Source: Candidatus Limnocylindrales bacterium
Lineage (GTDB): Bacteria; Chloroflexota; Limnocylindria; Limnocylindrales; CSP1-4
Direction: 5' to 3'
Assembly: GCA_036570185.1 (NCBI GenBank)
Contig: DATCPH010000076.1
Coordinates: 2,322-66,321, forward strand
DNA length: 64,000 bases
Position numbers: made by a program. Shown one piece after another: positions 18,001 through 27,000 of this stretch (its first letter is position 1; each line of letters starts with the position of its first letter).

Positions 18001-21000
18001 ACCGCCCAGCCACCAATACGGCGCGCCGTGCCCGTCGGAAGACAGGGCCTCGTCGGCGGTCGTGCACGGGGCGACGACACCCACCTTGGCACAGACCTTG
18101 TCGGCCGTTTGCTCGGCCATCATCCGGTAGGTCGTCAGCTTGCCGCCGACGATCGACGTGAAATTGGCGATCCCGTCGCGGCGCGCGTGGTCGATCACGA
18201 CGTGGGCTCGTGTCACCTCGCGCGATTCAGCACCCGCTTCGGCCGGGTCGTACAACGGCCGCACACCGCCGTAGGCGCGGAGGAGGCGCATTCCGCGCAG
18301 GCTCGGGAAGATCTTCTCCCCCTCGTCGAGGAGTTCCTCCACCTCGGCCCGGGTGATCTCCCATTCATCGGGGTCCGCCACGTGGATATCGGTCGTGCCG
18401 AGGATCGCAACGGTTCCGACCGGCATCATGATGTCGCCATCGCCGGGCCGATGGCAGCGGTTGATGCAGGCGTCGGTCATGCGCTGGTTGAACACGAGCA
18501 TCGTGCCCTTGCCAGGTGACATGTCGAGTCGGGCGCCGGCCATGCCCGCGATCTGGCCGGCCCAGGCTCCGCCCGCTGACACGAACTGGGCTGCGGAGAT
18601 GCGGTGGACGGTGCCAGATCTCACGTCCGCCACCCGCGCGGCGAGGAGCCGACCGCCGCTCCGATCGAATCCGACGAGCCGGTGGTAGGGGAGCGCTCGG
18701 CTGCCGTGTCGCTCGGCGTCGGCCACGTTGGCCTCGATCAGCGCCCATGGCTCCAGGGCGCCGTCCGGGACCCGGAACGCCCGTCGGATGCGCCGGTTCA
18801 GGGTCGGGATCCGACGGAGGAGGTCGCTGGCCGCGACCTCCTCGCAGTCGACGCCGCTGGCCAGGCACGCTGCCTCGAAGCCGTCGACGTAGTCGTCCGG
18901 GTCGTCGGGCGTGGCCACGAAATAGCCGCCGGTGTCCTCGACCGCAAACGCCGCGATCCGGCGTAGGACCCGGTTCTCGGCGATGCACTCGCGCGCCGCA
19001 TTTGGATCGCGGCTGACGTAGCGACCGCCTGAATGGAGCAGGCCATGGTAGCGGCCACTCGTTCCTGTGCCGAGGTCGGAGCGGTCGACGAGGAGCGCGC
19101 GTAGGCCGCGCCTGGCGAGATCGCGCAGGACGCCAGCTCCCGTGGCTCCGCCGCCGACCACCAGGACGTCCCACGGGCCGTCGAGGGTCCGATGGGACCG
19201 GAGGACGCCAGGATCCGCTGTCATCGTGGAGTTGGATCGAGGCTCTCGCCGAGGCCGTCTTCGACCGCCTGACGGAGCGTCTCGATCGCCTCGTCGGCAT
19301 CATCGCCATCAGCAGTCAGCTCGAGCTCGGTCCCTCGGCCGACAGCCAGATTCATGATCGCAAGAACGCTCTTGGCGTCGGCTTCACGGTCGTCCCGACC
19401 AGAATTGCGCACGCGGATCGTCGAGCGAAACCGGCCCGCGGTGCGGACGAACAGGGCGGCCGGCCGGGCGTGGAGCCCGGACGGGTTAACCACCGTGACA
19501 CGTGCAGATTTCACCTCGCCGACCCCTTGTCAAGGTTGCGCGCCTCCTCGGCCGAGGCTGCGACCTCGTTGAGTGGCAGGCCGATGCTGGCCTGAACGGC
19601 AGCCACGACGGCACCTTCGACGAGCGGGCCCGATGAGATGGTCACGGCGCCGGTCAGGCTGTCGCCCAGCATCTCGACGGCCGACTCGCTGGCCAGAATC
19701 GCGCTCCCGAGGTCGCCCAGGACGAGCACTCCGGCAGCCGAATCCATCTGCCGGATCGCGTCGGCGATCCGGTCAGCGTCAGTGCCGATCGAGCCGTCGG
19801 GCGCGCCGCCGACCGCCGCAAACCGCATCCGGTCGCCGGCCATCTGGGCGGCAACCTCGACGACACCTTCGGCCAGGCGGCGGGAGTGGGAGACGACGAC
19901 GATTCCGACGAGCGGCTCGGTTTCGCTCATGGCGACTCGCTCATGGCGGCGAGGGTACTCCTCTCGTTCGTCGCGCCGGGCCGACCCCAAAGGTCGCTGG
20001 TGGACGACACGTTCGGGACTCCCGGCACTCGCCGGGCGGCCGAAACGATTGCCCCCCGCTCGACCCGCCTGGAAGGGCTCGGGTCGAGGCCCACCCCGGG
20101 GCCGCGCGTCCCGCTGCCTGACTCCCTCGTCACGGGATGGAGCGGGGCGAGTCGGGGGCGCGGTCCGGAGCGTCGAGCTCAGCGCCCGACTGGATCGATC
20201 AGTGCTCGACCCAGTCGAAGGTGCGAGTCACTGCCTTCTTCCAGAAGCGGTACTCCTTGTCCCGCTCCGCCGAATCCATGGACGGCTGCCATTCCTTGTC
20301 CTTCGCCCAGTTGGCCCGCAGGTCCTCAACCGCCGACCAGAAGCCGACCGCGAGGCCGGCCGCGTAGGCGGCGCCGAGGGCCGTCGTTTCGGCGACCTTC
20401 GGCCGGATGACGGGAACGCCGAGAACGTTGGACTGGAACTGCATGAGCAGCTCGTTGTAGACCATGCCGCCGTCGACCTTGAGGGCCGTCAGCGCGACGC
20501 CGGAGTCGGCGTTCATCGCGTCGAGCACCTCACGCGTCTGCCACGCGGTCGCCTCGAGCACGGCTCGAGCGATGTGACCCTTGTTCACGAACCGCGTGAG
20601 ACCCGCAATGACCCCGCGGGCCTCGCTCTTCCAGTACGGAGCGAAGAGTCCCGAGAAGGCCGGAACGAAATACACGCCGCCGTTGTCGTCGACGGTCTTG
20701 GCGAGCTCCTCGATCTCCGGCGACGTCTTGATCATCCCGAGGTTGTCGCGCAGCCATTGCACGAGCGCCCCCGTGATCGCGATCGAGCCCTCCAGCGCGT
20801 ACACGGCCGGCTGGTCACCGATCTTGTAGCCGAGGGTCGTGAGGAGGCCGCTCTTGCTCGGCACGGCCTTGGTCCCGGTATTGAGGAGCATGAAGCAGCC
20901 GGTGCCGTACGTGTTCTTGGCCTCGCCGGCGCTGAAGCACGTCTGGCCGAAGAGGGCTGCCTGCTGATCGCCGAGATCGCCGGCCACCGGCACGCCGGCG

Positions 21001-24000: not shown

Positions 24001-27000
24001 GTAGACCGGCACGGCATCCCACGGGATCCCACCGTTGAGGGCAACCGCGAGAGTGACCGCCGGGTTGAGATGGGCGCCGCTGATGGGTCCGGCCACGACC
24101 ACGCCGCAGAAGACGGCCAACCCCCACGCGAACGTGATGACGATCCAGCCGCTGTTCTGCGCCTTCGAGCGGTTGAGCAGGACCCCGGCGACGACGCCGT
24201 CCCCGAGCAGGATCAGCGTGCCCGTTCCCAACACCTCCGCCAGGAAGATCTCCAATGGATGCGCCATGTTTCACCCTCCACTACCACTAGACCGAACCTA
24301 GACGGCCGACGCGCGGGGTTCCCGCCCTCGAGAGGCAAAGAAAAAAGTCCGCGCCTCGGCATCACTGCCGAGACGGGACTTTTCACATCATGTCCCGAGG
24401 AAAGGCAAAACGGTTCTACTCCTCGGCGAGGATCGTTGTCAAGGGGCCCCGGGCCCGATTTCGATTCGGTTGCGGAATCGACGACAGAGCTTCGGCCAAT
24501 GCCTCCGCCGCGGACGGGCTGAGCGCGATGCTCTCAGCGAGGCGCAGACAGGACAACGCTTCGTCATAGCTGCCGATGAGCCCGTAGGCAAGGACGGGAT
24601 GCGGCAGGAGGTCCAGCTCGGCACGCGACATGTGCATCAGCACGAGGCCCGGGGTGATGACTGTGCCGACCCCCGGACGTCGGGGATGCTCGGCGAGCGA
24701 GCGTCGTAGCCCGGTCGAGTCCAACGCGAGACAGTGCACGAGGCCGAGCCCACCCAGATCGGCTACTCGGGCAGCGATTGCCGGACGTCGCGTCAGCACG
24801 ATCGCGATCCCGAGCCACTGGACGACGAAATCGACTGCCGCTTCGTCGGCATTGAGCCCGTGCACCGTGTCGAAATCGAGCGCGAGCGCCGGACCGGCAT
24901 TCGCGGCGCACTCCACGACGGTCGCAAGGTCGATGTCGCGCAGCATGAGACCGGGGTTGAGGCCCTCGAGGCCCTTGGGCATGTGGCGGCCCGCCTGAGC
25001 AACCAGGACGCGCGGCATGTGAGGCCGGCCAGGATCGGGCGCCAAGGGATGACGGGCGAGCGGCGAGCGGTCGGTCGCCAGCGAACCCTCAGCCATTGAA
25101 CGTCCACAGGTTCGCAGAACTCGTGGTCACGCCCACCGCCCCTGCCGCGAGGATGGCCCGGACGTCGGCCTCGGTGCGGACGAACCCCCCCGCCAGGACC
25201 GGTACCCGGAAGCCCGGCATGAGGTGCGCAACCGATGGCAGGACCACGCCAGGGAGAATCTCGACAATGTCCGGATCCGAGCGACTGATCGCACTGAGGG
25301 CTCCGTCGAGATGGCTTCGGCGTGAGAGCAGCAGTCGCTCGACGGCGACGGCGCCTTCCTGCCGGATCACCGAGATCAGCTGGCCGTGGGACGTAATGAT
25401 CGCGTCCACCCCGGAGCGGGCGAGCCAGCTCACCCCCGCCGCGTCGGCCCGCACCCCGTCGATCAAGTCGAGGTGCGCAGCGACGAGCTTGCGGGCATCG
25501 TGCGCGCGTCTGACCGTGGCGCCAAGCAGCAGCCCGTTGCCACGCAGGATGAACAGGATCGGGACGCGGCTTGCGAGCGCGGCATCCAGCGTCGCGTCAG
25601 ATACGATCGCCGCGCAGCACGGCGCATCCGCGAGGCGGGCAACGAAGTCGTTCGCAGAGGGCGGCGCGTATGTCACCATCGCCAGCCCGGGATTCACCTC
25701 GCATGATGCTTCTTAGCCGCTGCGGAAGCATAGCTCGCGCGTCGACCCGGCCCCCGAATGACGGCTGGATCCGCAGGGTCCGGGCGGGCGCCGTGGCCTT
25801 CGCCGAGATGGCTTTTCAGGGCTCTCCCACGACGAGCGCCGCGTTCAAGCCGCCGAAGCCAAACGACGTCGAGAGCACCCGCCGATAACGGCCCGGTCGG
25901 CCAACGCGCAGGAGGCCGGGCAGGCGAGCGGCGATCTCCTCATCGGGTACCTCGAGGTTGATCGAGGGCGGAGCCCAGCTGTCGCGGATCGTCAGGGCGG
26001 CGATCGCCGCCTCGATCGCGCCGGACGCGCCGAGCGGATGCCCGTAAAAGGCCTTCGTCCCGCTCACCGGAACAGTCTTCGCCCGATCGCCGAGGGCCAG
26101 GACGATCGCACGGGCTTCGGCCAGGTCACCGATCGGCGTCGACGACGCATGGGCGTTGACGTAGTCGATCTCGTCGGGCAGGTCGCCGCCGTTTTCGAGG
26201 GCGATGCGCGCGGCGCGGGCCGCTTCGATGCCATCGGCCCGAGGCTGGACCATGTGGTGGCCGTCGGACGTTGCGCCGTAGCCTCGAACCTCGGCGTACG
26301 GCAGCGCGCCCCGGCGTTCGGCGTTCTCGGCGAGCTCAAGGATCAGGAGGGCCGCGCCCTCGCCCATGACGAAGCCGTCTCGACCGGCGTCGAACGGCCG
26401 GGCGGCACGTTCTGGCTCTTGATTGCGGTGGGTGGACAGGGCCCGAATGATGTCGAAGGCGCCGAACGCGAGCGGGCTGAGCGGGACTTCGACGCCGCCC
26501 GCGATCGCCGCGTCGATCTCCCCTGATCGGATAGCGCCCAGCGCCTCGCCGATCGCGACCGTTCCCGACGCGCACGAGTTCGCTGTCGAGAGGATCGGTC
26601 CGCGGATGCCCATGGCGATCCCGAGATTGGCCGGCGCCGCCCCGCCAAAGACGGCCAGGGCAAGGGTGGCGGAGACGGAGCGCAATCCGCGCGCGAGGTA
26701 CCGCTCGTGCTGCTCCTCGGCGTAGGCGATGCCGCCGAGCGCGCTGCCCAGGTAGATTCCCGTGCGCTGGGCAAGGGCGTCGCCGAACTGGCCCGGATCG
26801 AGCCCGGCGTCGGCGAGGGCGAGGCGCCCGGCGACGAGCCCGAACTGGCTGAATCGGTCGAGCTGCCGGGCGGTCTTGGGGTCCATGTAGGCGAGTGGGT
26901 CGAAGTCATCGACCTGGGCCGCAACCTGCGAGCGGAAGGGACTCGGGTCGAAACGATCGATCCGCCGAACCGGCGAGGTCGTGGCGCACAGGCCGGCGCG

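Follow-up and report, generated by a model that had tools for sequence, protein, structure and literature searches.

Two divergent GlpP-family proteins and a candidate antitermination leader at a glycerol and dihydroxyacetone gene block of an uncultured soil Chloroflexota

A block of glycerol and dihydroxyacetone (DHA) genes on a contig from a Candidatus Limnocylindrales MAG, an uncultured soil Chloroflexota genome, begins with two overlapping and very different genes of the GlpP family, followed by a conserved leader. The explanation that we favour, with a probability of about 0.6, is that the block is a regulon under GlpP-type antitermination by a complex of the two proteins, GlpP1 and GlpP2, for which we infer both RNA binding and dependence on glycerol-3-phosphate (G3P). 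GlpP-type antitermination had been suggested in a preliminary description of this DNA, and the suggestion gains support from a Bacillus-like leader at the very place where GlpP would be expected to act, in which a promoter is followed by a conserved hairpin and an intrinsic terminator. The conserved pair of such different GlpP-family proteins is apparently undescribed.

The features are listed below in their order along the minus strand of the window (the whole 64-kb stretch that was analysed).

25089–25679, minus: GlpP1, 196 aa from an ATG, with an ORF extendable to a GTG at 25697 (PF04309, 136.7 bits)
24416–25096, minus: GlpP2, 226 aa (PF04309, 40.7 bits against a cut-off of 27)
24442–24437 (TTGACA) and 24418–24413 (TAGAAC), minus: putative glpF operon promoter with an 18-nt spacer, read from the sequence
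24374–24397, minus: leader hairpin CGGGAC-(12-nt loop AUGAUGUGAAAA)-GUCCCG, the proposed GlpP site and antiterminator
24347–24379, minus: intrinsic terminator, 14-bp stem with one bulge, U-tract at 24341–24346 (RNAfold −36.1 kcal/mol, z −5.1)
23509–24267, minus: glpF, aquaglyceroporin of the MIP family (PF00230, 161.6 bits; TIGR00861, 194.5 bits, above cut-off)
22410–23408, minus: dhaK, DHA-binding subunit of PTS-dependent dihydroxyacetone kinase (TIGR02363, 501.9 bits, cut-off 406)
21744–22376, minus: dhaL, ADP-binding subunit of DHA kinase (TIGR02365, 232.2 bits, cut-off 138)
20199–21698, minus: glpK, glycerol kinase (TIGR01311, 741.7 bits, cut-off 590)
19511–19930, minus: dhaM, phosphoryl donor subunit with a single EIIA(Man)-type domain, the start being that of the 139-aa version in public gene calls (TIGR02364, 123.6 bits, cut-off 98)
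19221–19514, minus: HPr-family phosphocarrier (PF00381, 102.6 bits; TIGR01003, 92.9 bits)
17398–19224, minus: glpA (TIGR03377, 589.6 bits, cut-off 552.8)
16026–17411, minus: glpB (TIGR03378, 171.4 bits, slightly below the cut-off of 174.15)
14656–16029, minus: glpC (NF008369, 476.7 bits, cut-off 278)
13606–14637, minus: PanE/ApbA-family reductase, downstream of glpC (TIGR00745, 148.7 bits)
about 12897–13511, minus: plsY, downstream of glpC (TIGR00023, 151.3 bits, residues 116–312 of a long ORF)

All eleven genes previously claimed, and their order, were found as described with strong family matches, and a PanE-like gene and plsY do follow glpC (TIGR00745 and TIGR00023 matches at 12897–14637). 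The span first given to the block, 19221–25697, takes in the genes from GlpP1 as far as HPr and leaves out glpABC, the PanE-like gene and plsY, which occupy 12897–19224. A 268-nt spacer separates glpK from dhaM, and the HPr gene shares 4 nt with the end of dhaM and another 4 nt with the beginning of glpA. The catabolic genes are an ordinary glycerol/DHA utilisation cluster, in which glpA, glpB and glpC (14656–19224) encode a three-subunit FAD/Fe-S G3P dehydrogenase. No glycerol dehydrogenase gene was found in the block, which leaves the DHA route with its kinase half only; the statement that both routes of glycerol dissimilation are present is overstated, since of the second one just the DHA kinase step is encoded. 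Nor is an anaerobic-type G3P dehydrogenase particularly noteworthy in an aerobe. GlpABC passes electrons to menaquinone, and aerobic haloarchaea rely on it to break down glycerol (bioRxiv 10.1101/2024.02.29.582781); by this comparison its presence in a likely aerobe is unsurprising. In sister Limnocylindrales loci glpK is followed either by glpABC or by a gene with only 37–40% identity to GlpA, after which no glpB or glpC was detected in those loci and which is probably GlpD-type.

The conserved unit straight after GlpP2 consists of TTGACA-N18-TAGAAC, the hairpin CGGGAC-N12-GTCCCG and the 14-bp terminator. The TAGAAC −10 box overlaps the GlpP2 stop codon TAG. TTGACA was present upstream of the hairpin in all 52 related leaders listed, at 45–49 nt in 48 of them and with a nearer second copy at 35 nt in the other four, and the −10 box was mostly TAGAAC or TACAAC. 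A generic consensus promoter scan found no promoter at the glpF leader, because the −10 box ends in C and not in T. Within the hairpin, GGGAC and GTCCC were invariant in 47 aligned leaders and the stem could pair in 100% of the leader sequences; since it never varies, it gives no covariation support. The hairpin alone folds at −9.1 kcal/mol and is not more stable than shuffled sequences (z −1.1). Its 3′ arm is also the 5′ arm of the terminator (24374–24379). The terminator region, 24341–24379, is the sole strong terminator-like site on the minus strand within 12000–28000; across 27 leaders 98.7% of cells were paired, and three pairs showed compensatory changes. The block is not one simple transcription unit, because the promoter and terminator (24341–24442) separate the regulators from glpF. 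Antitermination by the GlpP pair does not require glpP and glpF to share a transcript, as glpF has its own conserved promoter.

A covariance model matched the window at 24327–24408 (87.6 bits, E 2e-18) and detected one leader copy in the 64 kb, the only other match being the antisense echo of that copy over the same positions. The leader directly follows the GlpP pair in every related locus examined. A second leader was found in only one 12-kb related locus (L010), where it precedes dhaKL, and in other genomes the leader also precedes genes near a UgpC-like G3P transporter ATPase.

According to our preferred reading, the structural operon glpF-dhaKL-glpK would start at its own promoter, overlapping the end of GlpP2, and probably continue into dhaM-ptsH-glpABC. 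About 10 nt into the transcript the hairpin would form. Unless it were held, its 3′ arm would be captured by the much stronger terminator, and transcription would stop at the U-tract before glpF. When G3P from GlpK is present, the GlpP regulator would bind and stabilise the hairpin; this would remove six base pairs next to the U-tract, and RNA polymerase would read through. The regulator would most likely consist of two GlpP-family subunits in complex, encoded by translationally coupled genes and separated by ancient divergence. The basic GlpP1, with standard phosphate-binding loop motifs, would probably serve as G3P sensor and RNA binder, and the acidic GlpP2, with its phosphate motifs lost and a conserved barrel face of its own, as an obligate partner that might contribute, for example, a second signal, specificity or stability. 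Such a division of labour is our inference, as is the heteromer itself, the grounds for the latter being solely gene adjacency, overlap and co-occurrence. The conserved pocket face of GlpP2 fits a sensor in its own right as well as it fits a passive partner.

Both proteins belong to the GlpP family by sequence and fold. In the HMM check proposed earlier for GlpP/G3P_antiterm, both ORFs, GlpP1 included, retrieved PF04309 above the Pfam cut-off. GlpP1 matched Listeria GlpP (3KTS) with E 1e-21 and 1VKF with E 8e-15 in phmmer. BLASTP found no significant similarity between GlpP1 and GlpP2, and profile-to-profile comparison (hhalign) related GlpP2 to the GlpP1 family with 97.5% probability and 23% identity. 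The copies had been described as differing strongly in their N-terminal halves; in fact identity is only about 23% across the alignable core (P1 residues 43–188, P2 residues 50–194), and ahead of the core they cannot be aligned. The two genes are thus, judging from their sequences, not a recent duplication. An AF2 model of GlpP2 (pLDDT 84.8) has eight beta-strands alternating with helices, and its best Foldseek matches were 1VKF and 3KTS, the two solved GlpP structures.

GlpP1 of the window retains the phosphate-binding motifs AGG and TTSS; across related loci AGG and TTS each occur in 49 of 50 sequences, and the median pI is 8.8. Its C-terminal segment resembles the phosphate-binding segment of HisA, a match that the same kind of search did not give for GlpP2. 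The pocket of GlpP1 is not fully canonical, since it lacks a 'DS' motif present in all seven canonical GlpP sequences inspected. GlpP2 of the window has AYG, no TTS and invariant pocket residues of its own. Its relatives carry AYG (44/50), DSTG (50/50) and TRRP (44/50), with TTS in 1/50 and a median pI of 5.6.

Our observations favour a single regulator made of two parts over two independent regulators. The GlpP2 start overlaps the GlpP1 stop by 8 nt (ATGGCTGA), and stop/start overlaps of 8 or 11 nt occur in 38 of 50 related loci. In all 53 species-level genome loci with a GlpP2 relative, GlpP1 is the gene just upstream, in the same orientation, and the P1-then-P2 pair recurs in two further loci reached from GlpP1 relatives, so that the pair is never split and its order is constant. 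This tandem arrangement is far beyond chance. Obligate pairing, fixed order, codon overlap and a single leader tell against the earlier idea that a duplicated GlpP means two effector or RNA specificities. Under that idea, which we regard as unlikely, each GlpP would bind RNA alone and respond to different effectors (G3P as opposed to DHA, DHAP or a PTS signal, for example) or act on different leaders. GlpP2 may indeed have a ligand site of its own, as its invariant TRRP, DSTG, PG and AYG lie at the C-terminal ends of predicted beta-strands, on the ligand-pocket face of a TIM barrel, and an operon that mixes glycerol and DHA genes might need separate signals. Both proteins are, however, retained in related loci without any dha genes, and a protein that binds RNA by itself would not usually be as acidic as GlpP2. 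Related genomes have leaders of two classes, which differ in loop sequence, but the two were found in different loci and not together within the roughly 12 kb examined per genome.

The opposite charge of the two proteins, the loss from GlpP2 of the phosphate-site signature (Gly-Gly loop and TTS motif), and its more rapid divergence (50% mean pairwise identity, compared with 61% in GlpP1) would also suit a negative modulator or decoy, or drift to a non-regulatory role. As a pseudo-sensor that has lost G3P binding, GlpP2 could sequester GlpP1 or compete for the hairpin until a second condition is satisfied. We think this improbable. The 27 invariant columns in 20 diverse GlpP2 sequences indicate strong purifying selection on specific residues, and translational coupling would yield the two proteins in similar quantities, as is more often seen for subunits of a single complex. 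In a Ktedonobacteraceae locus a less diverged GlpP2-like gene lies within the regulated operon, an arrangement that fits a positive feedback role at least as well as an inhibitory one.

It is very improbable that the leader works without GlpP proteins, as a riboswitch or a plain terminator of the glpP transcript, with the proteins doing something else (as TIM-barrel-type enzymes, for instance): protein binding to the leader is deduced, the fold is common to many phosphate-binding enzymes and the terminator would also end the glpP1-glpP2 transcript, but some 70 nt with a single 6-bp hairpin before the terminator are too small for known metabolite aptamers, no Rfam family matches the leader, the L010 copy fronts dhaKL away from the GlpP2 end, and the one PF04309 protein characterised so far is an antiterminator whose targets are leaders of just this type. 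Moreover, the conserved promoter between GlpP2 and the hairpin makes the element more than a 3′ end: it is a 5′ leader to glpF.

Antitermination by a GlpP1/GlpP2 complex would share its hairpin/terminator logic with the BglG/SacY/LicT systems. There, some bases of an early short hairpin (RAT) also belong to the 5′ arm of a stronger terminator, and termination is prevented when a protein holds the hairpin. The proteins are unrelated, the regulators here being beta/alpha-barrels; Pfam found no CAT or PRD domains and, unlike in BglG/SacY/LicT, we saw no sign of PTS phosphorylation of the GlpP regulator. Among solved structures, GlpP1 aligns across about 150 residues with 3KTS (Listeria monocytogenes) and 1VKF (Thermotoga maritima TM1436). 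They are also the structures on which the GlpP2 model fits best (target-normalised TM-score 0.70–0.74), but GlpP2 shares only 18–20% identity with them, has AYG where they carry AGG or AAG, and lacks the T/S-T-S motif.

In Bacillus subtilis, GlpP with G3P overrides terminators in the glpD, glpFK and glpTQ leaders (PMC9604022, PMC10573289). Shared with that system are PF04309, a regulator gene directly upstream of glpF, a target operon that has a promoter to itself and an intrinsic terminator in its 5′ leader, and the expected inducer, G3P made by GlpK (PMC9604022, PMC10573289). Bacillus has one GlpP gene, whereas here there is an invariable pair of overlapping and very different genes, of which the second lacks the phosphate-binding Gly-Gly and TTS motifs; the operon here carries dhaKLM, HPr and glpABC where Bacillus has glpD. 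For the catabolic genes a parallel is found in Haloferax volcanii, an archaeon whose glycerol and DHA genes are not known to be regulated by a GlpP-family antiterminator. It is aerobic and high-GC, uses GlpK with GlpABC rather than GlpD, and has a PTS-type DhaKLM that aids DHA use beside GlpK (PMC3863723; bioRxiv 10.1101/2024.02.29.582781).

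All genes named in the glycerol and DHA block were confirmed by Pfam and NCBIfam scans, and all lie on the minus strand. The coordinates given for the block in the preliminary description cover only GlpP1 to HPr; its genes extend to plsY, as follows.

25089-25679, minus strand, GlpP1
24416-25096, minus strand, GlpP2
23509-24267, minus strand, glpF
22410-23408, minus strand, dhaK
21744-22376, minus strand, dhaL
20199-21698, minus strand, glpK
19511-19930, minus strand, dhaM
19221-19514, minus strand, HPr
17398-19224, minus strand, glpA
16026-17411, minus strand, glpB
14656-16029, minus strand, glpC
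13606-14637, minus strand, PanE/ApbA-family reductase
about 12897-13511, minus strand, plsY

The FabF-like ketosynthase upstream of GlpP1 (25816-27084) falls outside the glycerol block. It is part of a four-gene run on the minus strand (25816-29753), together with an SRPBCC/polyketide-cyclase-like protein (which the public annotation calls separately), an FAD-dependent monooxygenase and a methyltransferase. The run resembles a small cluster of tailoring or lipid type, with no relation to glycerol. On the plus strand, a BatA/VWA protein is encoded at 10792-12270, and an AAA_5 ATPase with a VWA_CoxE protein after it at 46533-49376. The GC content of the window is approximately 70%, and the long ORFs at 2006-3541, 3566-4876, 5051-7933, 43625-45430 and 62078-63979, which had no Pfam match, may be spurious in such high-GC DNA.

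Both regulators were assigned to the GlpP family. Against PF04309 (GlpP / G3P_antiterm, cut-off 27 bits) GlpP1 scored 136.7 bits, so that its proposed membership holds, and GlpP2 scored 40.7 bits; no NCBIfam model matched either protein. GlpP1 matched the Listeria GlpP structure 3KTS with an E-value of 1e-21 and 1VKF with 8e-15, the corresponding values for GlpP2 being 5e-4 and 5e-3. BLASTP of GlpP1 against GlpP2 gave nothing significant, and profile-profile alignment of the two families of relatives (GlpP1 residues 43-188, GlpP2 residues 50-194) gave a probability of 97.5%, an E-value of 6e-12 and 23% identity. As this low identity extends over the core, the divergence is not mainly in the N-terminal halves, as had been suggested; judged by their sequences, GlpP1 and GlpP2 are paralogues that separated long ago and differ along their whole length. 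Modelled by AF2 with 20 homologues (mean pLDDT 84.8), GlpP2 shows eight strands alternating with helices, and the top Foldseek matches of the model in the PDB were 1VKF and 3KTS (E-values 5e-8 to 1e-6, target-normalised TM-scores 0.70-0.74). The GlpP beta/alpha-barrel fold is thus predicted for both proteins, from sequence for GlpP1 and from the model for GlpP2.

To compare their motifs, seven canonical GlpP sequences were used (3KTS, 1VKF and five representatives). These have in common H-x-D-L-V-x-G-L, I-I-S/T-T, Q-R-x-F-x-x-D-S, L-P-G, A-G/A-G-L-I and S/T-T-S ... L-W. In TIM-barrel families a Gly-Gly loop and an S/T motif are standard phosphate-binding elements, and the C-terminal ends of the strands form the pocket face. 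The A-G-G and T/S-T-S motifs, placed after strands 7 and 8, are by this analogy the presumed site for the phosphate of G3P. Relatives of GlpP1 retain AGG and TTS (49/50 each) and keep D-S in only 8 of 50, the window GlpP1 having LLSRRS at that position. Residues 153-195 of GlpP1 also matched, weakly, the phosphate-binding segment of HisA, and the same kind of search gave no HisA-type match for GlpP2. GlpP1 therefore carries the standard phosphate-binding motifs and GlpP2 does not: among its relatives A-Y-G replaces AGG in 44 of 50 and TTS occurs in 1 of 50, so that GlpP2 belongs to the family by homology and fold and is not a typical G3P-binding GlpP. These relatives keep the D-S-T-G (50/50) and have a T-R-R-P of their own (44/50), and all conserved GlpP2 residues lie at the C-terminal ends of predicted strands, on the pocket face, which argues that GlpP2 has been remodelled rather than has decayed. 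The GlpP1 family is basic (median pI 8.8) and the GlpP2 family acidic (median pI 5.6); GlpP2 evolves faster, with a mean pairwise identity of 50% against 61% for GlpP1.

A protein identical to GlpP2 is encoded on contig DAIRGW010000015.1 of MAG GCA_036794345.1 (Candidatus Limnocylindrales bacterium, Chloroflexota); several contigs from soil metagenomes also carry it, in the same gene order. High GC and the presence of GlpABC, DhaKLM and HPr might suggest a haloarchaeal or actinobacterial glycerol cluster, a reading rejected on the strength of this identical protein and of the low score of HPr against the haloarchaeal HPr model. When one genome per species was scanned, GlpP2 relatives turned up at 54 loci, nearly all in Limnocylindrales or other Chloroflexota MAGs and a few labelled Dormibacterota, Bacillota, Methylomirabilota or unidentified. 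A GlpP1-type gene lay directly upstream on the same strand in every locus with a true GlpP2 (53/53). In 38 of 50 loci the nearest start codon of GlpP2 and the stop codon of GlpP1 overlap by 8 or 11 nt, the window junction being ATGGCTGA (25096-25089), and in most of the others the two codons lie within a few bases of each other. The same overlapping pair, followed by glpF, was recovered when two GlpP1 relatives on long contigs were taken as starting points. When 1.84 billion representative proteins were searched with the GlpP2 profile, only 24 clusters had E-values up to 1e-30; beyond these, the hits were canonical GlpPs together with a few GlpP2-like intermediates, and they scored at most 65 bits. 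GlpP2 is therefore a small, lineage-restricted branch. A Ktedonobacteraceae MAG (L060, 5018-6471) carries a canonical GlpP and a divergently transcribed, less derived GlpP2-like gene, with ALDSTG, ASG instead of AGG, and AVAK...LW, followed by glpK and glpF. The separation of the two types therefore predates Limnocylindrales, and this locus may represent an intermediate stage in the evolution of the paired arrangement.

The 148-nt gap between GlpP2 and glpF contains the sole strong terminator-like site on the minus strand in 12000-28000. Comparison of 52 leaders from related loci gave the following architecture.

24442-24437, minus strand, putative promoter -35 element TTGACA, identified by comparison of loci
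24418-24413, minus strand, putative promoter -10 element TAGAAC, 18-nt spacer after TTGACA, overlapping the GlpP2 stop codon
24397-24374, minus strand, hairpin CGGGAC, 12-13 nt loop, GTCCCG, about 16 nt beyond TAGAAC
24379-24347, minus strand, terminator stem of 14 bp with one bulge, from folding and covariation
24346-24341, minus strand, T-run after the terminator stem

The 3′ arm of the hairpin forms the first six bases of the 5′ arm of the terminator. Each of the 52 leaders listed has TTGACA ahead of the hairpin, 45-49 nt away in 48 and with a nearer second copy at 35 nt in the remaining four. A generic sigma-70 scan found no promoter, and TTGACA-N18-TAGAAC was seen only through the comparison of loci. 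Beside the perfect TTGACA, the conserved -10 element of the window and of the 52 related leaders, mostly TAGAAC or TACAAC, has a final C where T is usual; Limnocylindrales RNA polymerase may prefer promoters of this kind. Folding of the complete leader gave the terminator structure (-36.1 kcal/mol, z -5.1), and folding of the hairpin by itself gave -9.1 kcal/mol. In 27 glpF-type leaders 98.7% of cells in the terminator were paired and three pairs showed compensatory changes. Covariation was uninformative for the hairpin, both arms being invariant; this invariance, with a semi-conserved loop, would fit sequence-specific recognition. A 5′ leader with a predicted intrinsic terminator before glp genes is the arrangement expected of a GlpP target.

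Searched with a covariance model of the leader, the window gave a single minus-strand match (24327-24408, 87.6 bits), besides an antisense echo at the same place. Neither this model nor a regular expression revealed further copies in the window, for example before dhaM or glpA, and no Rfam family matched 12000-28000 at E-values up to 1. Two spacers within the block, an unusually long, GC-rich one of 268 nt between glpK and dhaM (19931-20198, minus strand) and one of 100 nt between glpF and dhaK (23409-23508, minus strand), each contain a GC-rich inverted repeat with no T-run, that before dhaK being for example CGTCGGGCGG...CCGCCCGACG; the leader motif and TTGACA are absent from both.

The leader was also found at other positions in related loci. 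In a Chloroflexota MAG (L010) two copies are present, at 3558-3640 and 6677-6760: one precedes dhaK-dhaL, which lie upstream of the GlpP pair, and the other precedes glpF. The hairpin/terminator unit thus identifies a small regulon and not one isolated site. A weaker form occurs in Dormibacterota and Bacillota MAG loci, and in L060 a GGGAC-N13-GUCC hairpin with a terminator (5790-5872) precedes the GlpP2-like gene. Some 20 Limnocylindrales genomes have, after the GlpP1-GlpP2 pair, a variant leader in place of glpF, with the loop UAGGAUUnGGnGAA and a shorter terminator CCCGC...GCGGG (L012 6590-9289; also L017-L021, L024, L028, L030, L031, L034-L038, L041, L043, L048, L049, L051 and L054). After it lie a small, apparently soluble histidine kinase (HisKA and HATPase_c, about 290 aa) and, a little beyond, a UgpC-like G3P ABC-transporter ATPase. 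A histidine kinase under GlpP control would, if confirmed, tie G3P sensing to a two-component system.

The catabolic genes add little that is new. DhaK, DhaL and DhaM, the three subunits of a predicted PTS-dependent dihydroxyacetone kinase, all exceeded their respective equivalog cut-offs. DhaM consists of one EIIA(Man) domain; HPr, which with EI would be the phosphoryl source, is encoded separately beside it and scored below the cut-off of the haloarchaeal HPr model; no PTS enzyme I (EI, PtsI) was found among the long window ORFs scanned, the genome being incomplete. GlpA (589.6 bits, cut-off 552.8) and GlpC (476.7 bits, cut-off 278) were clear matches. GlpB, at 171.4 bits, was marginally below the TIGR03378 cut-off of 174.15 and below every other NCBIfam GlpB cut-off (best subfamily model 253 against 354 bits). 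Because glpB lies in its expected place between glpA and glpC, with start/stop overlaps on either side, we regard it as a divergent GlpB, and the three subunits of a GlpABC glycerol-3-phosphate dehydrogenase are encoded together. No glycerol dehydrogenase family match (GldA/DhaD route) was obtained among the genes of 12897-25697. The block therefore encodes conversion of glycerol to G3P and DHAP by GlpF, GlpK and GlpABC, plus phosphorylation of free DHA; of the two glycerol routes originally described, the GlpK/GlpABC route stands and the second is incomplete. GlpK as well as DhaKLM contributes to the use of DHA by Haloferax volcanii (PMC3863723). The G3P dehydrogenase of haloarchaea that live aerobically is GlpABC, which passes electrons to menaquinone (bioRxiv 10.1101/2024.02.29.582781). 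Related Limnocylindrales loci have after glpK either glpABC or a gene 37-40% identical to GlpA, probably of GlpD type, with no glpB or glpC detected after it. Given the haloarchaeal enzyme and these mixed loci, an 'anaerobic' GlpABC here is unsurprising, and not the anomaly it was first taken for.

Our working model is G3P-dependent antitermination at the leader between GlpP2 and glpF, to which we give a probability of roughly three in four, because the leader has the anatomy described for B. subtilis and follows RAT-type logic. Which protein would act there is less certain. The two genes co-occur obligately, in fixed order and mostly with overlapping frames, and in every related locus examined a leader comes directly after the pair; on these grounds we tentatively favour a GlpP1/GlpP2 complex as the acting regulator, at a little under even odds. 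The main alternatives are that GlpP1 and GlpP2 act independently, the idea originally drawn from the duplication, and that GlpP2 is inhibitory or modulatory. An extension of the complex, which we consider unlikely, is a heteromeric antiterminator integrating two signals at one RNA hairpin, GlpP1 responding to G3P and GlpP2 to another signal, which might be DHA, DHAP or the degree to which the operon's own HPr/DhaM relay is phosphorylated. The GlpP2 barrel pocket, on predicted strands, is strongly conserved though remodelled (TRRP, DSTG, AYG and invariant histidines). If correct, such a regulator would be a two-subunit, two-ligand member of a family known so far as a single-gene regulator.

Few protein antiterminators are as little understood as GlpP: its binding site is ill defined, and we know of no RNA-bound GlpP structure. 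In this lineage the family is naturally divided between two partners that are obligate and very different, and the RNA hairpin is compact, invariant and set at a constant spacing from a conserved promoter. Such a defined RNA-protein pair for biochemistry and structure determination could show which barrel features bind G3P and which bind RNA. The literature searched on GlpP dealt with single-gene GlpP in Firmicutes, apart from incidental mentions, and neither paired GlpP genes nor this leader was found in it. A portable switch inducible by glycerol, of the kind already made from Bacillus GlpP and PglpD (PMC9604022), could also be built from the leader of about 80 nt and the two small proteins.

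In B. subtilis, GlpP with G3P overrides the terminators in the glpD, glpFK and glpTQ leaders, each of which has its own promoter (PMC9604022, PMC10573289), and the window leader matches these in anatomy. The hairpin-versus-terminator logic of RAT-type systems matches likewise. The likeness to BglG/SacY-type antiterminators is confined to RNA logic, the CAT RNA-binding and PRD domains being absent and Pfam showing PF04309 alone. The paired GlpP is best regarded as a variation on a familiar type of regulator, joined here to a catabolic cluster that is itself ordinary.
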